Below are positions 1 through 52,615 of a stretch of DNA of 64,000 nucleotides, piece after piece. Every line of letters begins with the position of its first letter. Positions within the stretch are counted from its first letter, which is position 1. The stretch is from positions 62,001 to 126,000 of the forward strand of contig OZ024748.1 of assembly GCA_964016885.1 (NCBI GenBank). The letters run 5' to 3'. The notes below the pieces were generated by a model. It made no database searches. It saw nothing but the letters and a program-made list of their open reading frames with translations, and was not told where the DNA came from. This stretch comes from Eledone cirrhosa (Eukaryota). The position numbers were made by a program, and so were the translations under genes.

Positions 1-306
1 CAACACCCTTCTTATGCAACCTCACCAAGCAACCCCACAACACAACCTCACGTTCACAATTCACAACACTCAACAAGGCATTCGTTATCTAGGGTTTACA
101 GTAAACATAGCGAGGTAAGACACACCCAGTACACTCTGTAAAGTGGTCATTAGGTTAAGATTAAACTGAAATCATACCTCCATTGTCGTTGGCGTATATT
201 TTCTCTAAAACTTAATTTCATTGCTTTCATTTCTCTTCTTTTTCTTCTATTCCATCTAAATATGAAAAAAAAATTATACAGGTCATTTCGTCTTATCAAG
301 AGCTCC

Positions 307-337
<31 letters not shown>

Positions 338-589
338 CCGAGATAATACCTTAAAATAATGGTAAAAAAAGTGTTTAATTACGAAAATCCTTTGAAATAA
401 CTTCCTCGCTCTTACTGGTCATACCTGCAAAACACAAAACACTAGCGTTAGCGTGAACAGTGCAGTGCAGTGGAGTGCAGTGCAGTGCAGTGTAATTTAG
501 TATGGTGCAGTTTAGTGGCACAGTACACTGTAAAACATTTAGCCAATCTCTCAGACATTTACAAATCTTTCAAGATATATATATATATA

Positions 590-1093
590 TGGGAGAGAGA
601 GAAATTACCCTCAGTAGATCAGACAGAGGGACCAGCTATTGAGATTAACGAATATAGGGTCCAAGAGGCGATTAAGGAAATGAAAAATGGTGAGGCTGCT
701 GGACCATCGGAGATAGTTGCTGAGATGCTGAAGGCCTCAGGGGACGTAGGCACTAAACTGGTTGCACACATCATCAATCAGGCTATATATGGCAGTGTCA
801 TACCCAAAGACTAGTGCAAAAGTAAAGGGGACGCTCTTGAGAGGAGAAATTATAGGGATATAAAACTGATGGATCAGGTTATGAAAGTGGCAGAAAGGAT
901 ATTAGCACAACTAATTAGAGAAAGGGTCAAACTAGATGAGATGCAGTTTGGTTTTGTGCCTGGGAATAGTACAACAGATGCCCTCTTCTTGATGAGACAA
1001 TTACAAGAGAGGTTCTTAGAGAAAAATAAGCCACTATACTTAGCCTTTGTTGACCTAGAGAAGGCCTTTGATAGGGTACGCCGATCTGTCATC
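590..1093 (+). mobile_element. RTE-clade LINE fragment: N-terminal part of reverse transcriptase (every unit)
   Basis: AAGPSEIVAEMLK, NYRGIKL, QFGFVPG-STTDA and AFVDLEKAFDRV; stop at 812-814; ends before QG/YADD. Homologous to the longer RTE at 41515-45040. Confidence 0.93.
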
Positions 1094-1094
1094 T

Positions 1095-1254
1095 TATTAT
1101 TTAACCTATAAATGGGGCCCCAACAGGTACTACTACACCAGGCCAGAGCAGACCTGGGAGTTATGACAACTAAGGGGGTAACTCCACGTTCCCCACAGTT
1201 CCTTCTGAACTTGAGCCTTGCCACTGGATGTAGTTTAATGTCATACCCAGGACA
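1095..1254 (-). repeat. Short interspersed repeat fragment interrupting the RT piece (every unit, and 35295-35455)
   Basis: ~160-bp non-RT block between the RT fragment and a TA/TACA microsatellite. Orientation and family are uncertain. Confidence 0.5.
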
Positions 1255-1324
1255 AATATATACATACATATATATATATGCATACACACATATATATATA
1301 TATACATATATACAAATATATATA

Positions 1325-1795
1325 TGCGTACGAAAGTGTGGTTACATGATGCCTATGCGAGATGTGCGACGCTGCATGGTAGTGAGACATGGACAGCAAC
1401 TGCAGAGGGTATGCGATGGCTGGAGAGAAATGAAGCAAGCACGCTCCGTTGGATGTGCAATGTCAATGTGCGGGAACGACCAAGCATAAACGAGTTGAGA
1501 GAGAAACTGTGTTTAAGAGGGATAAGTTGTGGTGTGCAAGAGAGGACTGAGATGGTATGGACATGTGATGCGCATGGAGGTTGAGCGCTGGGTAAAGAAG
1601 GGAGACGCAGTAGAGGAAGACCACGAAAAACATGGGTGGAGGTGGTGAGAGCCGACTTCAGATCGCTGAAACTCACCAAGGAGATGACGAAGGACCGTGA
1701 CAAGTGAAGAGATGCTTTGCTCAAGAGGACCTGTCCCACCCTTTCAAGCAGGGAAAAGCGGACGTAAAATGATGAACAGACGATGATAATGATGC
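1325..1795 (+). mobile_element. RTE LINE 3' end with short 3' UTR and (GAT)n tail (every unit)
   Basis: LHGSETW...LERNEASTLRWMCNV...RGRPRKTW, then cccaccc...gcagggaaaagcggacgtaaaatgatga. The same tail is at 52569-52612 and, reversed, at ~49405-49450. Confidence 0.92.
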
Positions 1796-2118
1796 TCTCT
1801 ATATATCTATCTCTCTATCAATCTATCCAGATATCTGTGCATCAGTCTATCTATTTACCTACACTTCTCACTCCGTCTCAGGATCACCGAGACATCACCA
1901 ACAACCAACCCACGCTGTGGGAAACAGTCCTCCCCGGGGCACACCCTGGTACTTCACACCATCTGTCTGTCTCGCTGCCTAACTACCGAGAAATCCGGCT
2001 TCTGTGCTTGCCTAATTCGTAGGTTATTAGGCAGTTGGCAGGTTTGCGGAAGTTGGTTTTGCAAATGGTTAAAACACTTGCATCACAAAATTCAAATAGC
2101 ATCACTCCTTGTTTTATC

Positions 2119-2237
2119 TTTCTCGTCTTTACCTAGGCCTGCATAAGTTAGTGTTACGGTTAGTGTTACTGTTAGCGTTACGGCTAGTTTTAGGGTTAAT
2201 TGAGAGCAAGAAACTGCTGCTAGGTAAAGACAAGAAA
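2119..2237. mobile_element. MITE-like element: 18-bp inverted repeats around degenerate (TTAGGG)n (every unit)
   Basis: tttctcgtctttacctag (2119-2136) versus ctaggtaaagacaagaaa (2220-2237), 1 mismatch. Core reads ttagtg ttacgg ttagtg ttactg ttagcg ttacgg ctagtt ttaggg. Confidence 0.7.
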
Positions 2238-2284
2238 TTCTGCATTTACAAGCAATTTTTACAAACAGCCACAATGACAGGACG

Positions 2285-3060
2285 GAGACATCGTTATGCT
2301 AGCAGGGGATTTCAATGGTCATGTTGGACAGCTCTACGATGGTTACACCGAGGTACGTGTTGGGCACACTTACGGCTTAAGAAATGAAGCAGTGAAACTT
2401 CTTGAATTTTGCGATGCAATTGCACTAACCATCTACAACACTAACTTACACAAATCTGCCAACCACCTAATAACCTACAAATCAGGCAAGCACATAAGCC
2501 AGATTGACTTCTTGCTAGTGAGGCAGCGGGACAGGCAGATGGTGTCAAATACAAAGGCATACCCCGGGGAAGAATGTACCCCAAGCAAGAGACTGAATGA
2601 GACATACAGGAAGGTGTGGAAAAAAGAAAGGTCTGGAAGCTAAAAGAGCTCTCACTAAAATACAAATTTAGGAAAGCCCTTCAATATGTGTATGATGAAA
2701 AAGAAGACGATTTAGAGTCGTACAACATAGATGATAACTGGAATTTCTTATGCGATACCTTACTGCAGGTTACTGATGAAACTTGTGGCTGGATCAGAGT
2801 TCCAACCAGACAGAGAGTGACATGGTGGTGGGACAGCACAGTAGATCGGGCCATTGGAGACTAAAGACTAGCATGGAATGCTTGCAAAATTAGTGCGAGT
2901 AGAGAAGAATATACAGCTGCTAAGAGAGAAGCTAGACGTCAGGTGTACTTAGCATGCAAGGAGGCTGCTCGACGACGTGCGCTGTTCCGTACTGCGAGGC
3001 AGTGTGTCAGTGCAAATCGGGATTAAGTCTGTCCGCAATGATGCCGCTGTACTTTGTGTC
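2285..3060 (+). mobile_element. RTE LINE fragment: C-terminal APE endonuclease plus linker (every unit)
   Basis: AGDFNGHVG, ITYKSG..SQIDFLL, TWWWD and KREARRQVY; frameshifted, with stops. Confidence 0.92.
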
Positions 3061-3076
3061 ACGAATGAGTGTTGAT

Positions 3077-3222
3077 GAGTAGAAAAGAGGACAAAACTCT
3101 ATTCCGTCAGGGAAATGGCCATGTTCGATATGCAGAAACGGAACTGGCATAAATTATATAAAACGTACACAAAAGATCGAGTGCGATAGCAGGCACGTAG
3201 TGGGATAGCAGGCAAACTAACA
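3077..3222 (+). mobile_element. RTE LINE fragment: decayed PHD-finger segment (every unit)
   Basis: Nucleotide match to 51801-51950, which encodes REEDKTLIPSGKWSCSICRKG...CSGIAGKLT. Confidence 0.8.
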
Positions 3223-3239
3223 GCATATTTTGATTATAA

Positions 3240-3941
3240 TAAAACAAATAATAATAGTAATAATAATAATAATAATCGTCATTGTTCTTTTCTTCTGTGC
3301 CTTTCTTTGCCTTCTCTGTCATCTGAATAACAAAAATAAAAGAAAAAAAGAATCTTAAACATATGTTGCCTTTACAAAGTGCTGTGATCAAAGTAGCTTT
3401 TAAGCAATTTCCTAACTAACAAACAACATCAACAAAATATATACAAATATCTTTGAATGTCAAGTCCACCAAGAGAAAATAGTCATAATGTACTTACAGA
3501 TACAATGCTAGGGACTCGCATCAATGAGTTTTAGTAGAAAATGACTGACTGACTGTTGAGGGGACAGAGGTGTGTTTTCAAATATTTATCAATTCACAAC
3601 AAAGCCTCACAAAGCTACATCATAATGCAAACTCACAACACCCTTCTTATGCAACCTCACCAAGCAACCCCACAACACAACCTCACGTTCACAATTCACA
3701 ACACTCAACAAGGCATTCGTTATCTAGGGTTTACAGTAAACATAGCGAGGTAAGACACACCCAGTACACTCTGTAAAGTGGTCATTAGGTTAAGATTAAA
3801 CTGAAATCATACCTCCATTGTCGTTGGCGTATATTTTCTCTAAAACTTAATTTCATTGCTTTCATTTCTCTTCTTTTTCTTCTATTCCATCTAAATATGA
3901 AAAAAAAATTATACAGGTCATTTCGTCTTATCAAGAGGTCC

Positions 3942-3972
<31 letters not shown>

Positions 3973-4059
3973 CCGAGATAATACCTTAAAATAATGGTAA
4001 AAAAAGTGTTTAATTACGAAAATCCTTTGAAATAACTTCCTCGCTCTTACTGGTCATAC
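3240..4059 (-). other. Putative spliced exon chain, probably non-coding: exons 4059-3985, 3890-3813, 3552-3498 and 3322-~3240 (every unit)
   Basis: Minus strand: branch CTAAC (A at 4083) + gtgttttgtgttttgcag|; aag|gtatta; ttttttttcatatttag|...gag|gtatga; ctctgtcccctcaacag|...tct|gtaagt; tttttttcttttatttttgttattcag|. Introns are 94, 260 and 175 nt. No continuous ORF. Confidence 0.55.
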
Positions 4060-7000
4060 CTGCAAAACACAAAACACTAGCGTTAGCGTGAACAGTGCAG
4101 TGCAGTGGAGTGCAGTGCAGTGCAGTGTAATTTAGTATGGTGCAGTTTAGTGGCACAGTACACTGTAAAACATTTAGCCAATCTCTCAGACATTTACAAA
4201 TCTTTCAAGATATATATATATATATGGGAGAGAGAGAAATTACCCTCAGTAGATCAGACAGAGGGACCAGCTATTGAGATTAACGAATATAGGGTCCAAG
4301 AGGCGATTAAGGAAATGAAAAATGGTGAGGCTGCTGGACCATCGGAGATAGTTGCTGAGATGCTGAAGGCCTCAGGGGACGTAGGCACTAAACTGGTTGC
4401 ACACATCATCAATCAGGCTATATATGGCAGTGTCATACCCAAAGACTAGTGCAAAAGTAAAGGGGACGCTCTTGAGAGGAGAAATTATAGGGATATAAAA
4501 CTGATGGATCAGGTTATGAAAGTGGCAGAAAGGATATTAGCACAACTAATTAGAGAAAGGGTCAAACTAGATGAGATGCAGTTTGGTTTTGTGCCTGGGA
4601 ATAGTACAACAGATGCCCTCTTCTTGATGAGACAATTACAAGAGAGGTTCTTAGAGAAAAATAAGCCACTATACTTAGCCTTTGTTGACCTAGAGAAGGC
4701 CTTTGATAGGGTACGCCGATCTGTCATCTTATTATTTAACCTATAAATGGGGCCCCAACAGGTACTACTACACCAGGCCAGAGCAGACCTGGGAGTTATG
4801 ACAACTAAGGGGGTAACTCCACGTTCCCCACAGTTCCTTCTGAACTTGAGCCTTGCCACTGGATGTAGTTTAATGTCATACCCAGGACAAATATATACAT
4901 ACATATATATATATGCATACACACATATATATATATATACATATATACAAATATATATATGCGTACGAAAGTGTGGTTACATGATGCCTATGCGAGATGT
5001 GCGACGCTGCATGGTAGTGAGACATGGACAGCAACTGCAGAGGGTATGCGATGGCTGGAGAGAAATGAAGCAAGCACGCTCCGTTGGATGTGCAATGTCA
5101 ATGTGCGGGAACGACCAAGCATAAACGAGTTGAGAGAGAAACTGTGTTTAAGAGGGATAAGTTGTGGTGTGCAAGAGAGGACTGAGATGGTATGGACATG
5201 TGATGCGCATGGAGGTTGAGCGCTGGGTAAAGAAGGGAGACGCAGTAGAGGAAGACCACGAAAAACATGGGTGGAGGTGGTGAGAGCCGACTTCAGATCG
5301 CTGAAACTCACCAAGGAGATGACGAAGGACCGTGACAAGTGAAGAGATGCTTTGCTCAAGAGGACCTGTCCCACCCTTTCAAGCAGGGAAAAGCGGACGT
5401 AAAATGATGAACAGACGATGATAATGATGCTCTCTATATATCTATCTCTCTATCAATCTATCCAGATATCTGTGCATCAGTCTATCTATTTACCTACACT
5501 TCTCACTCCGTCTCAGGATCACCGAGACATCACCAACAACCAACCCACGCTGTGGGAAACAGTCCTCCCCGGGGCACACCCTGGTACTTCACACCATCTG
5601 TCTGTCTCGCTGCCTAACTACCGAGAAATCCGGCTTCTGTGCTTGCCTAATTCGTAGGTTATTAGGCAGTTGGCAGGTTTGCGGAAGTTGGTTTTGCAAA
5701 TGGTTAAAACACTTGCATCACAAAATTCAAATAGCATCACTCCTTGTTTTATCTTTCTCGTCTTTACCTAGGCCTGCATAAGTTAGTGTTACGGTTAGTG
5801 TTACTGTTAGCGTTACGGCTAGTTTTAGGGTTAATTGAGAGCAAGAAACTGCTGCTAGGTAAAGACAAGAAATTCTGCATTTACAAGCAATTTTTACAAA
5901 CAGCCACAATGACAGGACGGAGACATCGTTATGCTAGCAGGGGATTTCAATGGTCATGTTGGACAGCTCTACGATGGTTACACCGAGGTACGTGTTGGGC
6001 ACACTTACGGCTTAAGAAATGAAGCAGTGAAACTTCTTGAATTTTGCGATGCAATTGCACTAACCATCTACAACACTAACTTACACAAATCTGCCAACCA
6101 CCTAATAACCTACAAATCAGGCAAGCACATAAGCCAGATTGACTTCTTGCTAGTGAGGCAGCGGGACAGGCAGATGGTGTCAAATACAAAGGCATACCCC
6201 GGGGAAGAATGTACCCCAAGCAAGAGACTGAATGAGACATACAGGAAGGTGTGGAAAAAAGAAAGGTCTGGAAGCTAAAAGAGCTCTCACTAAAATACAA
6301 ATTTAGGAAAGCCCTTCAATATGTGTATGATGAAAAAGAAGACGATTTAGAGTCGTACAACATAGATGATAACTGGAATTTCTTATGCGATACCTTACTG
6401 CAGGTTACTGATGAAACTTGTGGCTGGATCAGAGTTCCAACCAGACAGAGAGTGACATGGTGGTGGGACAGCACGGTAGATCGGGCCATTGGAGACTAAA
6501 GACTAGCATGGAATGCTTGCAAAATTAGTGCGAGTAGAGAAGAATATACAGCTGCTAAGAGAGAAGCTAGACGTCAGGTGTACTTAGCATGCAAGGAGGC
6601 TGCTCGACGACGTGCGCTGTTCCGTACTGCGAGGCAGTGTGTCAGTGCAAATCGGGATTAAGTCTGTCCGCAATGATGCCGCTGTACTTTGTGTCACGAA
6701 TGAGTGTTGATGAGTAGAAAAGAGGACAAAACTCTATTCCGTCAGGGAAATGGCCATGTTCGATATGCAGAAACGGAACTGGCATAAATTATATAAAACG
6801 TACACAAAAGATCGAGTGCGATAGCAGGCACGTAGTGGGATAGCAGGCAAACTAACAGCATATTTTGATTATAATAAAACAAATAATAATAGTAATAATA
6901 ATAATAATAATCGTCATTGTTCTTTTCTTCTGTGCCTTTCTTTGCCTTCTCTGTCATCTGAATAACAAAAATAAAAGAAAAAAGAATCTTAAACATATGT

Positions 7001-7574
7001 TGCCTTTACAAAGTGCTGTGATCAAAGTAGCTTTTAAGCAATTTCCTAACTAACAAACAACATCAACAAAATATATACAAATATCTTTGAATGTCAAGTC
7101 CACCAAGAGAAAATAGTCATAATGTACTTACAGATACAATGCTAGGGACTCACATCAATGAGTTTTAGTAGAAAATGACTGACTGACTGTTGAGGGACAG
7201 AGGTGTGTTTTCAAATATTTATCAATTCACAACAAAGCCTCACAAAGCTACATCATAATGCAAACTCACAACACCCTTCTTATGCAACCTCACCAAGCAA
7301 CCCCACAACACAACCTCACGTTCACAATTCACAACACTCAACAAGGCATTCGTTATCTAGGGTTTACAGTAAACATAGCGAGGTAAGACACACCCAGTAC
7401 ACTCTGTAAAGTGGTCATTAGGTTAAGATTAAACTGAAATCATACCTCCATTGTCGTTGGCGTATATTTTCTCTAAAACTTAATTTCATTGCTTTCATTT
7501 CTCTTCTTTTTCTTCTATTCCATCTAAATATGAAAAAAAAATTATACAGGTCATTTCGTCTTATCAAGAGGTCC

Positions 7575-7610
<36 letters not shown>

Positions 7611-10600
7611 GAGATAATACCTTAAAATAATGGTAAAAAAAGTGTTTAATTACGAAAATCCTTTGAAATAACTTCCTCGCTCTTACTGGTCATACCTGCA
7701 AAACACAAAACACTAGCGTTAGCGTGAACAGTGCAGTGCAGTGGAGTGCAGTGCAGTGCAGTGTAATTTAGTATGGTGCAGTTTAGTGGCACAGTACACT
7801 GTAAAACATTTAGCCAATCTCTCAGACATTTACAAATCTTTCAAGATATATATATATATATGGGAGAGAGAGAAATTACCCTCAGTAGATCAGACAGAGG
7901 GACCAGCTATTGAGATTAACGAATATAGGGTCCAAGAGGCGATTAAGGAAATGAAAAATGGTGAGGCTGCTGGACCATCGGAGATAGTTGCTGAGATGCT
8001 GAAGGCCTCAGGGGACGTAGGCACTAAACTGGTTGCACACATCATCAATCAGGCTATATATGGCAGTGTCATACCCAAAGACTAGTGCAAAAGTAAAGGG
8101 GACGCTCTTGAGAGGAGAAATTATAGGGATATAAAACTGATGGATCAGGTTATGAAAGTGGCAGAAAGGATATTAGCACAACTAATTAGAGAAAGGGTCA
8201 AACTAGATGAGATGCAGTTTGGTTTTGTGCCTGGGAATAGTACAACAGATGCCCTCTTCTTGATGAGACAATTACAAGAGAGGTTCTTAGAGAAAAATAA
8301 GCCACTATACTTAGCCTTTGTTGACCTAGAGAAGGCCTTTGATAGGGTACGCCGATCTGTCATCTTATTATTTAACCTATAAATGGGGCCCCAACAGGTA
8401 CTACTACACCAGGCCAGAGCAGACCTGGGAGTTATGACAACTAAGGGGGTAACTCCACGTTCCCCACAGTTCCTTCTGAACTTGAGCCTTGCCACTGGAT
8501 GTAGTTTAATGTCATACCCAGGACAAATATATACATACATATATATATATGCATACACACATATATATATATATACATATATACAAATATATATATGCGT
8601 ACGAAAGTGTGGTTACATGATGCCTATGCGAGATGTGCGACGCTGCATGGTAGTGAGACATGGACAGCAACTGCAGAGGGTATGCGATGGCTGGAGAGAA
8701 ATGAAGCAAGCACGCTCCGTTGGATGTGCAATGTCAATGTGCGGGAACGACCAAGCATAAACGAGTTGAGAGAGAAACTGTGTTTAAGAGGGATAAGTTG
8801 TGGTGTGCAAGAGAGGACTGAGATGGTATGGACATGTGATGCGCATGGAGGTTGAGCGCTGGGTAAAGAAGGGAGACGCAGTAGAGGAAGACCACGAAAA
8901 ACATGGGTGGAGGTGGTGAGAGCCGACTTCAGATCGCTGAAACTCACCAAGGAGATGACGAAGGACCGTGACAAGTGAAGAGATGCTTTGCTCAAGAGGA
9001 CCTGTCCCACCCTTTCAAGCAGGGAAAAGCGGACGTAAAATGATGAACAGACGATGATAATGATGCTCTCTATATATCTATCTCTCTATCAATCTATCCA
9101 GATATCTGTGCATCAGTCTATCTATTTACCTACACTTCTCACTCCGTCTCAGGATCACCGAGACATCACCAACAACCAACCCACGCTGTGGGAAACAGTC
9201 CTCCCCGGGGCACACCCTGGTACTTCACACCATCTGTCTGTCTCGCTGCCTAACTACCGAGAAATCCGGCTTCTGTGCTTGCCTAATTCGTAGGTTATTA
9301 GGCAGTTGGCAGGTTTGCGGAAGTTGGTTTTGCAAATGGTTAAAACACTTGCATCACAAAATTCAAATAGCATCACTCCTTGTTTTATCTTTCTCGTCTT
9401 TACCTAGGCCTGCATAAGTTAGTGTTACGGTTAGTGTTACTGTTAGCGTTACGGCTAGTTTTAGGGTTAATTGAGAGCAAGAAACTGCTGCTAGGTAAAG
9501 ACAAGAAATTCTGCATTTACAAGCAATTTTTACAAACAGCCACAATGACAGGACGGAGACATCGTTATGCTAGCAGGGGATTTCAATGGTCATGTTGGAC
9601 AGCTCTACGATGGTTACACCGAGGTACGTGTTGGGCACACTTACGGCTTAAGAAATGAAGCAGTGAAACTTCTTGAATTTTGCGATGCAATTGCACTAAC
9701 CATCTACAACACTAACTTACACAAATCTGCCAACCACCTAATAACCTACAAATCAGGCAAGCACATAAGCCAGATTGACTTCTTGCTAGTGAGGCAGCGG
9801 GACAGGCAGATGGTGTCAAATACAAAGGCATACCCCGGGGAAGAATGTACCCCAAGCAAGAGACTGAATGAGACATACAGGAAGGTGTGGAAAAAAGAAA
9901 GGTCTGGAAGCTAAAAGAGCTCTCACTAAAATACAAATTTAGGAAAGCCCTTCAATATGTGTATGATGAAAAAGAAGACGATTTAGAGTCGTACAACATA
10001 GATGATAACTGGAATTTCTTATGCGATACCTTACTGCAGGTTACTGATGAAACTTGTGGCTGGATCAGAGTTCCAACCAGACAGAGAGTGACATGGTGGT
10101 GGGACAGCACAGTAGATCGGGCCATTGGAGACTAAAGACTAGCATGGAATGCTTGCAAAATTAGTGCGAGTAGAGAAGAATATACAGCTGCTAAGAGAGA
10201 AGCTAGACGTCAGGTGTACTTAGCATGCAAGGAGGCTGCTCGACGACGTGCGCTGTTCCGTACTGCGAGGCAGTGTGTCAGTGCAAATCGGGATTAAGTC
10301 TGTCCGCAATGATGCCGCTGTACTTTGTGTCACGAATGAGTGTTGATGAGTAGAAAAGAGGACAAAACTCTATTCCGTCAGGGAAATGGCCATGTTCGAT
10401 ATGCAGAAACGGAACTGGCATAAATTATATAAAACGTACACAAAAGATCGAGTGCGATAGCAGGCACGTAGTGGGATAGCAGGCAAACTAACAGCATATT
10501 TTGATTATAATAAAACAAATAATAATAGTAATAATAATAATAATAATCGTCATTGTTCTTTTCTTCTGTGCCTTTCTTTGCCTTCTCTGTCATCTGAATA

Positions 10601-33619: not shown

Positions 33620-34750
33620 ATAAAAATACAAATTTAGGAAAGCCCTTCAATATGTGTATGATGAAAAAGAAGACGATTTAGAGTCGTACAACATAGATGA
33701 TAACTGGAATTTCTTATGCGATACCTTACTGCAGGTTACTGATGAAACTTGTGGCTGGATCAGAGTTCCAACCAGACAGAGAGTGACATGGTGGTGGGAC
33801 AGCACGGTAGATCGGGCCATTGGAGACTAGCATGGAATGCTTGCAAAATTAGTGCGAGTAGAGAAGAATATACAGCCGCTAAGAGAGAAGCTAGAGGTTA
33901 GGTGTACTTAGCACGCAAGGAGGCTGCTCGACAAGAAGATCAAAGACGCGCCGTGTTCCGTATTGCGAGGCTGTGTGTCAGTGCAAATCGAGATTAAGTT
34001 TGTCTGCTTAATGATGCCGGCGTACTTAGTTTTACGGATGGTCAGAAAAAAAAGGCCTGGAAATGTCATTAAGAGAGACTGATGAATGTGGAGACCCAAT
34101 GTGAGAAAGAGAGAAATTACCCCCCCAGTACATCCGACAGAGGGATCAGCTATTCAGATTGACCAATATATGGTCTAAGAGGCGATTAAGGAAATGAATA
34201 ATGGTAAGGCCGCTGGACCGTCAGGAATAGTTGCCGAGATGCTGCAGGCATCAGGGGACATAGGCACTCAACTGGTTGCACGCTTCATCAAATCAGGCTA
34301 TATATGTCGGTTTTGTACTCAAAGACTGCTGCAGCAATATTCTCGTAAATTGCTACAAAGGTAAAGGAGATGCTCTGGACATGAGCAATTATAGAGGAAT
34401 AAAGCTGATAGATCAGGTTGTGAAAGTGGCAGAAAGGATATTAGCGCAACTAATTAGAGAAAGGGTCCAACTAGATGCGATGCAGTTTGGTTATGTGCCT
34501 GGGAAAAGTGCAACAGATACCCTCTTAGCGAGACAACTACAAGAGAGGTTATTAGAAGCCACTATACTTAGCTTTTGTTGAAATAACTTCCTTTCTCTTA
34601 CTGATCATAACTGCAAAATAGAAAACAGTAGCGTTAGCGTGAACAGTACAGTGCAGTGTAGTGTAGTGTGATTTAGTATGGTGCAGTTTAGTGGCACAGT
34701 ACACTGTAAAACATTTAGCCAATCTCTCAGACATTTACAAATATTTCAAG

Positions 34751-34785
<35 letters not shown>

Positions 34786-35480
34786 ATATACATGGGAGAG
34801 AGAGAAATTACCCTCAGTAGATCAGACAGAAGAACCAGCTATTGAGATTGACGAATATAGGGTCCAAGAGGCAATTAAGGAAATGAAAAATGGTGAGGCT
34901 GCTGGACCATCGGAGATAGTTGTTGAGATGCTGAAGGCCTCAGGGGACGTAGGCACTAAACTGGTTGCACACATCAATCAGGCTATATATGGCAGTGTCA
35001 TACCCAAAGACTAGTGCAAAAGTAAAGGGGATGCTCTTGAGAGGAGAAATTATAGGGGTATAAAACTGATGGATCAGGTTATGAAAGTGGCAGAAAGGAT
35101 ATTAGCACAACTAATTAGAGAAAGGGTCAAACTAGATGAGATGCAGTTTGGTTTTGTGCCTGGGAATAGTACAACAGATGCCCTCTTCTTGATGAGACAA
35201 TTACAAGAGAGGTTCTTAGAGAAAAATAAGCCACTATACTTAGCCTTTGTTGACCTAGAGAAGGCCTTTGATAGGGGTACCCCGATCTGTCATCTTATTA
35301 TTTAACCTATAAAAGGGGCCCTAACAGGTACTACTACACCAGGCCAGAGCAGACCTGGGAGTTATGACAACTAAGGGGGTAACTCCACGTTCCCCACAGT
35401 TCCTCCTGAACTTGAGCCTTGCCACTGGATGTAGTTTAATGTCATACCCAGGACAAATATATACACACACACATATATAT
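33620..35480 (+). repeat. Diverged, rearranged edge monomer of the array
   Basis: Jumps from unit position ~900 to ~2657, continues through RTE linker and RT partly absent from the units (33990-34578), then a diverged copy of unit positions ~395-1260. Confidence 0.85.
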
Positions 35481-41514: not shown

Positions 41515-44500
41515 TCATCATCATGATCTTCGTTTAACGTCCATATTCCACGCTCGCATGGGTTTGGACGGGAATTTTCCCACTTGAGGCAAGAGTGGTT
41601 GTCTTGCTCGCATAGGACTGTCTGGCGGGTTTTCTACGGTTGGATGCCCTTCCTAACACCAACCACATTTACAGTGTGGAACTGGGAGGTTTTTACCGTG
41701 TTACCTACACGCCCACATTACAGCGTGGACTGTGTGTGCTTTTGTCGTGACACCTACACGACCTCATTTGTTTCGGGCTGGATGTTGTGGTACCAACATA
41801 ACTTTACATTGAAAGGGGTGGTGTGGATGGAGTGGGGGTAATGGGACGGGGGTGTATTTTGTTAGAGGTGCCTACTGACTGTAGTAGGTTTCACTTTGTA
41901 CTTAGGTAAGGCGGGTCTTCTCTATTACTGTGTAGCGCCAAAGAACTCGGTCCAGTGACATTGTCTTGGAGAGGTGTAAGTGTGTGAGGTCGGAATTTAT
42001 CAAGTCGTCCCAGGTTTTTCTGGGTCTGCCTACTCCGTGGCTACCGTTTATTTTTATTGCCCTGCACATTTTTATACAGCTGTCGTCTTTCATGCGCATC
42101 ACGTGACCATACCAACATAGTCTTCTCTCGAGTAAACATCTGATCCCTCTTATTTCTAATTTCTCCCTTATTTCGTTTATGCTTTGCCGTTCACGTATAT
42201 TACTATTACACATCCAGCGGAGCATGCAAGCTTCGTTTCTCTCCAGCCTGCGTATATCCTCTGCACACAATGCCTAGGTCTCACTGCCATGTAACATTGC
42301 TGTTCGTATGCAGGCATCATACAGCCTGCCTTTCATTTTTAGAGAGAACCCTTTAACGGCCAATAGTAGTATAAGCTCTCTTAACTTTTTCCATCCCGTT
42401 CTGACTCTAGCTACTGTACTTTCAGAGCACCCTCCCCCACTGCTGATTTTATCACCCAGGTAACGGAAGCTGTCCACTATTTCTATAGAACCATCTGTGC
42501 AATGGAATGAGTTAGTATTCTGTGGGCACTTGTGTGCTACTTATTGCACCAGAGCACCGGCCACATATAAAATCTATATTCTTAGTTAGCTTACCTGTGA
42601 TCCCACTACATCTTTTATGTAGCCATACTTTGCATTTGGGACATAACATGGAGTTTCTACCTACTCCTTTCCTACACACTGAGCATGGCCATTTCCCAGA
42701 TGGGACCGGTGCCCTATTTTCCTTCCTACAAACTTTAGTCTTAGACAAGTTAACTTTAAGGCCTTTTGATTCTAGGCCATGCTTCCATGTTTGGAATTTA
42801 TTTTCTAGTTCAGCCATTGATTCAGCTATGAGCGTTAGATCATCTGCATATAGGAGTTCCCATGGGCAGCCGGTCTTGAACTCCTCTGTTATAGCCTGAA
42901 GAGCAATAATAAATAGTAGGGGGCTAAGGACGGAGCCCCGATGAACACCAACTCTTCACTATATTCGTTGTTAATTCTAACCTTGCTGACTGTTTCTTTA
43001 TACATGGCTTGTATAGCTCTCACAAGCCATTCATCAACACCTAGTTTTCTAAGGGCTCACCAGATAATCAAGCGGGGTACTCTGTCAAAGGCTTTCTCCA
43101 AGTCAACAAAAGCTAAGTATAGGGGTTTACTTTTAGCTAGGTACTTCTCCTGTAGATGTTGTACAATGAAAAGAGCGTCTGTTGTACTTTTACCTGACAC
43201 AAACCCGAACTGCATTTCGTCTAGATCAATTCGCTCTCTGATTAGTTGCGCTATTACTTTTTCTGTGACCTTCATGACCTGGTCAATTAATTTAATGCCT
43301 CTATAGTTTCCCCCTATCTAGGGCATCACCTTTACCCTTGTAGCAGTTAATGATGATGCTGCTGCGCCAGTCCTTCGGAACGACCCCATTCTGTATGACT
43401 TGGTTTACTATCCGGGTGACCATACTGTGTCCCACCGTTCCAGATGCTTTCAGCATTTCGGCAACTATTTCCGAAGGCCCGGACGCCTTGCCCGTCTTCA
43501 TGTCTTTGATCGCCTTACTTATTATACTACCTTCAACTTTCACTGCTGGTCCCTCTATTGGGTCGATGTGGGGGAGACTGTCTTTCTCCCAATTATTCTC
43601 CTCATTTAGTAGCCTTTCGTAGTGACACTTCCAAGCTACCTTCTTATCAGCGTCAGTGATGGCAAGTACACCATCATCATTTAGGACACACTTCTCCCCG
43701 ACAATATCACTGTTTTCCTTGACACATTGCCTAGCAATCCTGAACACCTCACGTTTTTGGTCCTCGCGTTGTAGAACATGCTTGAACTTTCTTTCCTCTG
43801 CTTCCCTTCTTGCGAAGTACACTTGTCTCCTAGCTTCCCTCCTGGCCACTTGATAGTCTTCTCTACTTCCCCCATCCCGCCATGCTTTCCAAGCCTGCTT
43901 TTTGGCCTTGATTGACCTCTCCACCTTACTGTTCCACCACCAAGTTACTCTCCTCCTGTCTAGAGGCCTGCTCCAGCCACAGGTTTCATCTGTCGCCTTC
44001 AACAGGTTAGCTTTCAGGAATTCCCACTCTTCCTCTATATTGTACAACTCTAATTGCTCTTCCTTACTATCAAAAGCATCAAGTAATATGCTTTTAAATT
44101 TATTACTGGCTGTGGGGTCCTTTAATTTCCATATTTTTCTCCTGAGGATAGTCCTCTTCTGTTGTCGAATACGTCTCGTCCTGACTATGAGGTCGCTAAT
44201 TATGAGTCTATGTTGAGACGTGCATTCTTCATGGGGGAGGGATTTAGTGTTTACAACAGACACTCTGTCACGTCTCCTGGTAAGGATATAATCTACCTGG
44301 CTTGTGTGTCCCCCTATCTATAGGTGATCAAGTGATTGTCTCGTTTTTTGAAGTTAGTGTTACAGATAGTTAGGTTATTTGCGTCACAGAATTCCAGGAT
44401 TCTGGAGCCTTCCTCATTTCTAGTACCAAACCCATAGCCTCCATGGATTCCGTCATAGCCGTCACAATGTTGTCCAACGTGACCATTTAGGTTGCCAGCA

Positions 44501-45040
44501 ATAATTATATAGTCACTGTTGGTTATTTGGGAGGTAGTGAGCATCAGTGTCTCATAGAATCTGTCTTTTATAGTGCCGGGCAGTCCGGATTGGGGTGCGT
44601 ACGCAGATATTACTGTCACCGTAGTTCTATTGAGGACAAATCTTATTTTAATTATTCTGTCGTTCACTCTATTTACGTCTATTATCTTATCTGCCCACTT
44701 TTCTGCTACCATGATTCCTACTCCACCCAGCCCATCGTCATTTCCCACCAAGAAAAGCTTATAGCATCGTTCTTTACCCACGATGAATCTAGCAGACCCA
44801 CCCCTCCACCTGGTCTCTTGAATACAACAAACATCGACCTCCTTACGTTCAAGCATTTCTACAACCTCATTAGAGCGACCCTTTAAGGTGCCTACATTCA
44901 TGGTACCAACTCTGAAGTTTTGGATTGCGTTTGGAGGGTGGGAGCGGGGGGAAATGGGGGAGATGGGTTATGTTAGCCATCCACGACCGAAACAAAGAGG
45001 AGGAGCCCTTGCATTCTCGTCCATGAGGTGAATTTGTTTT
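41515..45040 (-). mobile_element. Near-full-length RTE-clade LINE (APE endonuclease, RT, PHD finger, C-terminus, 3'UTR, (GAT)n), disabled by frameshifts and stops
   Basis: MNVGTL...CCIQETRW, SAYAPQ, GNLNGHVG, HRL, AFVDLEKAFDRV, GCPWELLYADD (~42839-42868), C4HC3 finger, LHGSET, GRPRKTW; stop at 41902. Confidence 0.95.
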
Positions 45041-46526: not shown

Positions 46527-46855
46527 GGAGGCACATGGCTTAGTGGTTAGAACATTGGCCTGGCAATCAAAAGATTGTGATTTCAATTCTCACACCGGGT
46601 GATGTGTTGTTTCCTTGAGCAAGACACTTTATTTCACATTGCTCCTGTTTACTCAGCTGTAGAAATGAGATGATAGGACAGGGGTCCCTATCATTCCACT
46701 GTAAAGTGGACGTGTAGGCGCCACGGAAATAAAGCACCCAGCACTCACTGTAAATGAGGTTGGTGTTAGGAAGGGCATCCGGCTGTAGAAATCAAGCCAG
46801 AATCAGTTCACGTCCCACCCTTGCAAACAGGGAAAAGCGGATGTAAAATGATGAT
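46527..46855 (+). mobile_element. tRNA-derived SINE with RTE-type 3' tail
   Basis: A box TGGCTTAGTGG, degenerate B box, central ccttgagcaagacacttt block, tail cccacccttgca...gcggatgtaaaatgatga. Confidence 0.9.
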
Positions 46856-48470
46856 TCGTTGTTAATTCTAACCTTGCTGACTTTTTCTTCATACATGGTT
46901 TGTATAGCTCTGACAAGCAATTCATCAACACCTAGTTTTCTAAGAGTCCACCAGATAATGGAGCGGGGGACTCTGTCAAAGGCTTTCTCCAAGTCAACAA
47001 AAGCTAAGTATCGGGGTTTACTTTTAGCTAGGTACTTCTCCTGTAGTTGTCGTACAAGGAAAAGAGCGTCTGTGGTACTTTTACTTGACACAAACCCAAA
47101 CGGCATTTCGTCTAGATCAATTCGCTCTCTTTAATTGCGCTATAACTCTTTCTGTGACCTTCATGACCTGGTCAATTAATTTAATGCCTCTATAGTTTCC
47201 CCTATATAGGGCATCTCCTTTACCCTTGTAGCAGTTAATGATGATGATGCTATTATGCCAGTCATTTGGTATAACCCCATTCTGTATGACATGGTTTACT
47301 ATCCGGGTGACCATAGAATGTCCCACCGATCCAGATGCTTTCAACATTTCAGCAACTATCTCTGAAGGCCCAGCTGCTTTGCCTGTCTCCATATCTTTGA
47401 TTGCCTTACTTATTATACAACCTTCAACTTGCACTGCTGGTTCCTCTATTGGATTGTTTTGGGGCAGACTATCTTTTTCCCACTTATTCTCCTCATTTAG
47501 TAGCCTCTCGTAGTGACACTTCCAAGCTACCTTTTTATCTGTATCAGTGATGACAAGTATACCATCATCATTACGGGCACACTTCTCCCCGACAATATCA
47601 CGGTTTTCCTTGACACATTGCCTAGCAATCCTGAACACCTCACGTTTTTGGTCCTCACGTTGTAGAACATGCTTGAACTTTATTTCTTCTGCTTCCCTTC
47701 TTGCAAAGTACACTTGTCTCCTAGCTTCCCTCCTGGCCACTTGATAGGCTTCTCTGCTTCCCCCATCCCGCCATGCTTTCCAAGCTCTCTTTTTGGCCTT
47801 GATTGACTCCTCCTGCCTATAGGTCTGCTCCAGCTACAGATTTCATCTGTCGCCTTCAGCAAGTTAACTTTCAGGAATTCCCACTGTTCCTCTATACTGT
47901 ATGTCTCTAATTGCTCTTCTTTACTGTCAAAAGCATCAAGTAATTTGCTTTTAAATTTGTTACTGGCTGTGGGGTCCTTTAACTTTCATATTCTTCTTCT
48001 CAGGGTAGTCCTCCTCTGTTGTCGAATACGTCTCGTCCTGACTATGAGGTCACTAACTATGAGCTATGTTGGGAGGTGCATTCTTCACGGGGGAGGGAAA
48101 TAGTGTTTACAACAGACACTTTTTCACATCTTCTGGTAAGGATATAATCTATCTGACTGGCATGTTCCCCTGATCTATAGGTGATCAAGTGATTGTCTGG
48201 TTTTTAAAGTTTGTGTTACAGATAGTTAGGTTATTAGAGTTACAGAATTCCAGGATTCTAAAGCCTTCCTCATTTCTGGTACCAAACCTGTAGCCACCAT
48301 GGATTCCATCATAGCTATCACAATGTTGTCCAACATGACCATTTAGGTCGCCAACAATTATGTTGTCACTGTCGGTTAGTTGGGAGGTAGTGAGCATTAG
48401 CGACTCATAGAATCTGTCTTTAATAACGCCAGGCAGTCAACATTGGGGTGTGTAAGCAGATATTATTGTC
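46856..48470 (-). mobile_element. RTE LINE internal fragment (endonuclease to mid-RT), paralog of 41515-45040
   Basis: GDLNGHVG, REARRQVYFARRE, NYRGIKLIDQ and AFVDLEKAFDRVPR. Confidence 0.92.
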
Positions 48471-49404
48471 CCCCTTTGCCCACCCGTCTCTTAAAGTAGC
48501 AGTAAAACATTGAACAATATTGAGTCAGCTTTTATAAAGTCGTTTGTCAAACGAGAGAACAGAGAGACAATACCAGTAACCACGAGAGAGACAACCAACC
48601 AACCATAATTATATAATAAATCAAAGTGAAAACAAAACAATATAATTCAACAGATTTTTCCAGATAAATCTTGCAAAACAATTTTTACCACCACCAACAC
48701 CAACATAATTTCATCAACACACATATTATACATATATATACATATATATCTTTCATTTTCTAACCTTAATCCCTAACAAATCCCACCCCCTCCAGTTCTA
48801 AAAATAGCAAATTCTTCCAGAAAGATAGACAGGGAAGAGAGGAAACACAGAGAAGAGAGGAACCCAGTATTTGACTGGTACTTTTATTCATAAAAAGATA
48901 AAGTGAGAAAAATAAAGAGAGGAAGAATTCACATCAGTATTTCACTGGTACTTTTTTTATCAACTTCCAAGGGATGAAAGGCAAAATTGACCTCGGCGGG
49001 ATTTCAACTCAGAGAGCATAGAACAAAAAGGAATACTGCAAAGTATTCTAATAACTCCCACCTTATATGACATTTCATATATATATATATAACAATTGTA
49101 TATATGCATGTGTGTATATACAACAAAATGATGAAATTAATTAAATGGAAAATTTTTCCCCAATACAAAACGTAAAAATAAATTTAACAAAGCTTTTTTT
49201 TGAAGAAATTAATTATATTTAATTTTTTTTTTAAGAAATAAATGAAATTAAACTTTTTATTTTTTAAGAAAAAAATTAAATTGAACTTTTTTTTAAGAAA
49301 TAAATTAAACAAATTTTATTTTTTAAGAAATAAATTAAATATAAATCTGACTGACCTGCAGCCATTTGACTTCCCGTGAGTGATTATGAACACACACCCA
49401 CTAA

Positions 49405-51023: not shown

Positions 51024-52615
51024 CGATAGAGGGACCAGCTATTCACAAAGACGAATATAGGGTTAGGGCATCAAAAGTAGCTACTAAACTGGTTGCACGC
51101 ATCGTCAATCAAGTTATATATATGGCTGAGTCATACCCAAAGACTGGTGCAGCAGTATTCTTATAAATTGCGACAAAGGTAGAAAGGGATGCTCTGGAAA
51201 TGAGCAATTATAGGGGCATCAAACTGATGGATCCGGTTATGAAAGTGACAGAAAGAATACTATTGCAACTAATTAGAGAAAGGGCCAAACTAAATGAGAT
51301 GCAGTTTGGTTTTATGCCTGGGAAAAGTACAACAGATGCCCTCTTCTTAGTGATACAACTACAAGAGAGGTTCTTAGAGAAGAATAAGCCACTATACTTA
51401 GCTTTTGATGACTTAGAGGAGGTCTTTGATAGTGTACCACGATCTGTCATCTGGTGGTCTCTAAGGAAAATAGGTGTAGAGGAATGGCTTGTGAGGACAG
51501 TGCAAGCTAAGTACAGAGGTTCTGTCAGTAAAGTGAGAGAAGTAATGGAGTTTAATGAGGAATTCCAGATACAAGTAGGAGTGCATCAGGGCTCTGTCCT
51601 CAGCCCGATCTTGTTCATTATAATTCTCCAAGCCATAACACGAGTTTAAGACTGACTGCCCATGGGAACTTCTCTAGGCTGACGATCTGGTACTTATAGC
51701 AGATTCAGTAGAGGAACTAGAGAAGAAATTCTGTCTATGGAAAAATCAGTTGGAATCAAGAGGACTGAGAGTGAACCTAGCTAAGACAAAAGTATTGATA
51801 AGTAGAGAAGAGGACAAAACTCTGATTCCATCAGGGAAATGGTCATGTTCAATATGTAGAAAAGGAGTTGGGATAAATTCTATAAAATGTACACAATGCA
51901 GATCCTGGGTACACAAGAGATGTAGTGGGATAGCAGGCAAACTAACAAGTAGAGAGAAATACGTATGCAGTAGTTGTACAGAACTTGACAGTAGAAGACG
52001 CAGTGATAGACACATTTACCACATGAAGGTGGGTTCTAAAGAAGTGGGTGATAGCTTCCGCTACCTAGGTGATCTGATTAGAATGGGAGGGGTGTTCCGA
52101 GACCATAATATCTAGAATAAGGACAGGTCGGAAGAAATTTAGGGAGCTGCTTCCTCTGTTGACAAAGAAGGATTTCTCCCTGCGTACGAAAGGATGGTTA
52201 TATGATGACTGTGTGAGATGCGCGATGCTGCATGATAGTGAGACTTGGGCAGCAACTGCAGAGGATATGCGATGGCTGGAGAGAAATGAACGACTAGGCA
52301 TGGAGGACTTCAGGGAGAAACTGTTTAACTGGGATAAGTTGTAGTGTGCAGGAGAGAAGACTATGTTGGTATAGACATGTGATGCGCATGGAGGATGACA
52401 CCTAGGTAAAGAAGTGCCAAGAAATCCCAGTAGAAGGACAACGCAGTAGAGGAAGACCACGAAAAATACGGGCGGAGCTGGTGTGAGCAGACCTCAAATC
52501 TCTAAAGCTCAATGAGGAGATGACGAAGGACCGTGACAAGTGGAGAGATACTGTGCTCAATAGGTTCGTCCCACCCTTGCAAGCAAGGAAAAGCGGACGT
52601 AAAGTGATGAAGATA
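51024..52615 (+). mobile_element. 5'-truncated RTE LINE (RT, PHD finger, 3' tail), decayed
   Basis: NYRGIKLMD, GVHQGSVLSPILF, ELL*ADDL (Y of YADD mutated to stop), CSIC..CTQC..HKRC..CSSC, tail at 52569-52612. Confidence 0.93.

Follow-up and report, generated by a model that had tools for sequence, protein, structure and literature searches.

The human D4Z4 macrosatellite is a subtelomeric array of 3.3-kb units with variable copy number, from which long transcripts such as DBE-T run through several units (PMC5687341). In Chlamydomonas, the Sultan arrays stand in tandem at most chromosome ends and are accompanied by a spliced, putatively non-coding Spacer RNA (10.1101/2021.01.29.428817). Human DDX11L is an intron-containing fragment distributed over many subtelomeres that is transcribed and canonically spliced (PMC2705379, PMC7374410), and head-to-tail repeats in the subtelomeres of Leishmania give rise to a spliced non-coding RNA (PMC7374410). 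In Drosophila, the flamenco locus gives a spliced single-strand RNA to which its transposon pieces lie antisense (PMC10495008), while the subtelomeric tandem repeats known as TAS form dual-strand piRNA clusters (PMC6043984). Macrosatellite transcription and the splicing of subtelomeric RNAs are already on record in other organisms; in the octopus and cephalopod literature covered, outside of which most subscription journals lie, we found no description of such an array.

A subtelomeric array within a large duplicon

The window analysed here is a stretch of 64,000 nucleotides from Eledone cirrhosa and corresponds to positions 62001-126000 of scaffold C8, in a genome of 3.0 Gb. A tandem array with a 3,635-bp unit occupies window positions 1-33621 in 9.25 copies that are ~99.8% identical. 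With 40% GC, the unit combines LINE scraps in a mosaic with an intron-exon block that has no ORF. The array's kilobase-sized units run head to tail at high identity and lie in a subtelomeric position, as in D4Z4-like macrosatellites; a protein-coding ORF in each unit, which characterizes D4Z4 proper, is lacking. The 861-bp block at 3240-4100, in which a sequence-only reading had proposed hidden exons, has nine full and one partial occurrence in the window, with each proposed splice site occurring 9-10 times, and the exon-1 motif is found in 14 copies on this scaffold end, at 48-95 kb. The centromere-side flank of the duplicon (33622-62000) is 95-99% identical to array flanks on other scaffolds and includes a partial unit copy at 34578-35480 (93% identity). 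On the telomere side, C8:1-20000 holds a second, older tandem array of ~5-kb units, common to C19, without the spliced cassette. An interpretation of the array as a snoRNA host or a tRNA array was dropped, since Rfam detected no snoRNA at 1-8000, its matches there being to microsatellites and short of the gathering scores, and there is no tRNA in the window.

The earlier estimate of about tenfold amplification proved far too low. Exact matches to the end of exon 2 gave at least 168 unit copies genome-wide, and arrays with unit lengths of 3.34-3.7 kb stand at 23 places or more, these place counts being lower bounds in which the DNA search scored the best 40 candidates and the pattern search counted among the matches listed. 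Both array flanks recur at other places at 95-99% identity and define a duplicon of ~100 kb. Of the 22 chromosome-scale places among the matches listed, 10 are no more than ~100 kb from a scaffold end and 12 lie away from the ends. The GT-AG strand points to the scaffold end in all 10 terminal arrays, which is the direction of TERRA and subTERRA transcription. TTAGGG arrays, tens of kb downstream of the unit array, are present at 8 of these 10 ends; the starts of C8 and C15 have none. The order of a subtelomere is thereby defined as telomere, distal repeats, duplicon and 3.6-kb array. At C21:13.80-14.02 Mb two duplicon copies face each other with ~12 kb of TTAGGG and two gaps between them: one array is followed ~40 kb further on by the TTAGGG block of ~12 kb and a gap, and the other duplicon begins after a gap. 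This arrangement suggests that some internal arrays may be true chromosome ends that scaffolding has brought together, or scars of fusions. Shorter unit variants of 3.34-3.36 kb (C5, C6, C19, C24, C58) are devoid of 3950-4272, including the exon-1 donor, and keep exon 2 and intron B.

Splice joints and the exon-intron model of the unit

The sequence-only reading had described four minus-strand exons in each unit, and its description of the motifs is accurate. AG acceptors precede 4059, 3890, 3552 and 3322, GT donors follow 3985, 3813 and 3498, and the lengths given for exons (75, 78 and 55 nt) and introns (94, 260 and 175 nt) are correct. The CTAAC motif proposed as a branch point is present at 4086-4082, but another AG lies between it and the proposed acceptor. 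As the reading had noted, only the 78-nt exon has an open frame in the window's sequence, and the spliced four-exon product contains stops in all frames. The motifs by themselves are not above chance, however, when scored against shuffled sequence: 12% of 1,000 dinucleotide shuffles reach the same counts, and the strong-site counts (2 donors, 4 acceptors) are also reached by 13 of 178 real 861-bp tiles. All three donors match 6 of 9 consensus positions, and the proposed acceptors are the four best-formed of the 55 AGs in the region, save one AG without a preceding pyrimidine. The scoring simply counted matches to a splice-site consensus rather than applying a trained splice model.

The stretch is present in six sequencing runs, for none of which the kind is recorded. 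Four of them (X1, X2, X5 and X6) were compared on 3100-4300, and X1 alone was also placed on a copy from C5 with a shorter poly(A) run. X1 comprises 88 million contig letters, against 1,428 million in X2 from the same organism; X5 and X6, from other organisms, yielded only short near-identical pieces at depth 2-5 and were not used as evidence. The comparison detected a joint 3813/3322 with GT..AG ends in X1, absent from X2, X5 and X6. A second joint with GT..AG ends, 3985/3890, was detected only when X1 was placed alone on the C5 copy, at least 94% alike, and stands without a DNA-run control, its site adjoining a masked repeat in all runs of the four-run comparison. Two of three donors (3985, 3813) and two of four acceptors (3890, 3322) are accordingly used in GT-AG joints in this one run. 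A single contig, with a short side of 28 letters, underlies each joint, and all come from one run and one sample.

Several results bear on whether these joints could be DNA. The joined forms of three GT-AG joints, including the C28 joint described below, were found in none of 239 genomic sequences compared (1.48 Mb). At the end of exon 2, the next base in the genome is the donor base in at least 168 exact matches and another base in none of the matches listed. Together these observations lead us to infer that run X1 is RNA. Two non-GT-AG joints in X1 (2346/3674 and 2595/2855) turned out to be the genomic structure of a paralogous unit on C28 and serve as an internal control; two more non-GT-AG joints occur at 1433/3365 and 3631/3793. 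Of 30 flanking bases at the joints 3985/3890 and 3813/3322, 5-10 are different in the C28 unit, indicating that both joints come from satellite-type copies. X1 contigs also carry variants foreign to the window's copies but found in other arrays, and the joint flanks are common to most satellite copies, hence the joints are not assignable to the C8 array as their source. RNA editing was rejected, as all 12 base differences in X1 are genomic variants in other copies.

The C28 paralogue belongs to an array of 30-45-kb units at C28:124.72-126.45 Mb, found also at C18:6.7 Mb and on small scaffolds. Its unit contains an LSU rRNA fragment, what we take to be an 18S-like start, GC-rich 160-bp repeats, short telomere-like runs, a LINE ORF of 957 codons and a histone stem-loop match. 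True rDNA was rejected for this array, in which the LSU fragment alone reached an Rfam match. Exons 1-2 have a paralogue in this unit, where the donor is full; a GT-AG joint in X1 (4040/3890), discarded as a splice of the window's unit, fits this C28 intron; the gutted-rDNA array is therefore likely transcribed in its spacer part.

The joints indicate minus-strand splicing in this repeat family, as the sequence-only reading had supposed, in a form simpler than four exons. Intron A (3891-3984, minus strand, 94 nt, GT-AG) is removed in X1, and its joined form was not found as DNA. The 78-nt exon (3813-3890, minus) is spliced on both sides and has no conserved reading frame. Intron B (3323-3812, minus, 490 nt, GT-AG), also removed in X1, includes a scrap of a high-copy repeat near 3750-3790 and the whole of the 55-nt exon 3 proposed at 3498-3552 on the same strand. 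The predicted junction 3985/3890 was thus seen, whereas those of exon 3 (3813/3552 and 3498/3322) were not, 3813/3322 taking their place. Both sites of exon 3 are bridged by one unbroken 485-nt contig and appear in no joint among the X1 contigs, from which rare forms are lost. Likewise, the acceptor at 4060 is bridged by one unbroken 259-nt contig spanning 3985-4253 and is in no X1 joint. The proposed exon 1 (3985-4059, minus), whose donor at 3984 is used, likely forms the 3' terminus of a long exon.

Most of the remaining unit consists of LINE pieces. A reverse-transcriptase fragment (4225-4749, plus strand; Pfam RVT_1, E 9.5e-10) and an endonuclease and linker fragment (5904-6736, plus), presumably of the RTE clade, are both antisense to the spliced strand; the latter is 45-57% identical to LINE ORF pieces at 43304-44967. 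These pieces, on the minus strand of the window and with a Pfam endonuclease match, are related to the unit's fragments, and more copies of them lie at 46854-48473 and 51090-52290. A small inverted endonuclease fragment occupies 5520-5749 on the minus strand. Within it, 5553-5745 pairs with 6022-6218 (197 bp, 78%), an inverted pair in each unit that could fold in a read-through RNA; X1 contigs show no editing.

X1 contigs cover 29 of 30 bins of one unit, the bin without cover being masked simple repeats. Long near-identical contigs run across the LINE part, and we saw no joint that removes it; in the simplest model, exons of 2,973 nt and 78 nt therefore follow each other in turn. The modelled longer exon (3985-6957, minus) opens at the exon-4 acceptor of the following unit, takes in the LINE pieces and closes at the 3985 donor; each contig covers only a part of it. 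The LINE pieces are probably exonic, contrary to the earlier suggestion that most RTE material would be intronic. Rows near masked repeats were left out (1 joint and 10 loose ends for X1 alone, 152 loose ends for the four runs), and a joint removing the LINE part could be missed for this reason. Because the X1 data are contigs, strand, RNA start and end, and level are unreadable from them; no piece spans one unit. The earlier expectation that a read-through transcript would repeat the exon block in each unit fits the data, and we infer that the RNA crosses unit boundaries. No AATAAA occurs on the spliced strand of the unit. The product was rightly called non-coding: ATG frames in the modelled RNA reach at most 131 codons, and Pfam found nothing in the intact ORFs of the unit.

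Paralogues and origin of the spliced block

Older copies of the block are found in older duplicon copies on C1, C2, C3 and C14, and further copies in the array of 30-45-kb units on C28 and other scaffolds (61 matches, 44 on C28). The four used splice sites are intact in the copies on C1, C2 and C3 and in copy 1 on C14, a conservation to be expected by descent among copies 80-95% identical. The donor of exon 3 reads AT in the C2 and C14 copies and probably arose later. None of the six paralogues examined keeps the open frame of the 78-nt exon, and at least one frame is open in 25% of shuffles. In two copies at C14:23.58 Mb, exon 2 is 98 and 95 nt long and open in another frame, shared by the two, which in copy 1 runs on into exon 4; a 20-nt loss closed this frame in the satellite. 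These are weak hints of a decayed coding exon, given that the frame is open in 14-16% of shuffles per copy, that the two copies are related, and that exon 1 has stops in all frames, C14 included.

A search for a parent gene in the Eledone genome by patterns and DNA found none among the best candidates listed, and in a protein search of the same genome 23 of 23 candidates were paralogues of the block. Protein databases also gave none, neither the Atlas nor 1.84 billion representatives (0 matches), for a weak query of 32 residues. A captured gene fragment is a possible source. At C14:23.586 Mb, on the minus strand, a 790-bp stretch with an internally deleted Helitron-like piece lies between two older cassette copies; by its motifs, we take it to join a Rep start to a helicase end, and it has no Pfam match. 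Capture by a Helitron was rejected, since the piece stands head-to-head with a C14 copy but between two cassette copies, making later insertion equally likely. A Pif1 2B fragment lies at C8:34520-35107.

Interpretation and comparison with known systems

We favour a reading, to which we assign a probability of roughly 0.6, in which the 860-bp block belongs to a non-coding subtelomeric macrosatellite within a duplicon, a family transcribed telomere-ward as a long read-through RNA that loses introns of 94 and 490 nt from each unit. Polymerase II would run telomere-ward across the duplicon, with the spliceosome using the inherited sites in every unit to give a long non-coding RNA. An older locus with introns, probably a decayed gene fragment, would most likely have supplied the splice sites, which were carried along as first the duplicon and later the unit underwent amplification. 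Splicing would then be a by-product of read-through by polymerase II, with no sequence-specific job required. The joints might instead be intronless DNA copies in the animal of run X1, or assembly artefacts, with the motifs arising by chance. The chance-level motif counts, the unrecorded kind of X1 and the single contig with 28 letters on the short side behind each joint favour this, but three separate joints coincide exactly with GT-AG borders, two of which had been predicted, and no joined form occurs as DNA in the 239 genomic sequences; we regard an artefact as highly improbable. That the block holds exons of a real multi-exon gene or lncRNA, with a promoter and more exons in the flanks and internal exons multiplied by the array as in a DDX11L-like case, would explain the shared open frame of the C14 copies. 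The shuffle frequencies, the relatedness of those copies, the stops in exon 1, and the failure of the searches above to find a parent gene or protein match weigh against such a duplicon gene, and it appears improbable.

By analogy with flamenco and the fly TAS, a single-strand array at many chromosome ends could also serve as a piRNA or siRNA precursor, its spliced RNA with antisense LINE sequence being cut into small RNAs that silence that LINE. LINE-like protein matches in the unit amount to 2,036 bp antisense to the spliced strand against 95 bp sense, all eight pieces on the telomere side are antisense, and flies provide precedents both for spliced single-strand precursors with antisense transposons and for subtelomeric piRNA sources (PMC10495008, PMC6043984). 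Yet few independent insertions underlie this bias: seven of the eight telomere-side pieces are copies in another tandem repeat, and the eighth is a self-match. Both orientations occur on the centromere side (5 antisense, 6 sense), and the pieces are only 45-59% identical in protein to LINE ORFs nearby. A silencing precursor has, in our judgement, a small chance of being the right description. A bolder form, in which the locus is a candidate subtelomeric piRNA-cluster family with a telomere-facing spliced precursor at 10 or more chromosome ends, built from a decayed gene fragment and antisense LINE and scaling in dose with array length, is rather doubtful.

Exact splice junctions of a repeat-derived RNA are now given for the animal group of Eledone, and they provide handles for RT-PCR and FISH with which to ask whether the RNA acts on chromosome ends or in LINE silencing. 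If the RNA is only read-through, it is an ordinary case of satellite transcription with splicing.

Compared with the systems described above, the Eledone array resembles D4Z4 as a subtelomeric array of a kilobase-sized unit. D4Z4 is GC-rich and encodes DUX4, whereas the Eledone unit has 40% GC and no ORF and occupies many more chromosome ends; the comparison implies no homology. The RNA of the Chlamydomonas Sultan arrays starts in the Spacer and runs centromere-ward, while in Eledone each unit has introns of its own and the spliced strand points to a telomere tens of kb away. DDX11L has a known parent gene and is not described as a tandem array in the sources cited; for the Eledone unit no parent was found. 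TAS clusters are dual-strand; the Eledone unit has few independent insertions, and any small-RNA output from it is putative. Splicing in Leishmania is trans-splicing, in a protist, whereas the Eledone joints are cis GT-AG introns.
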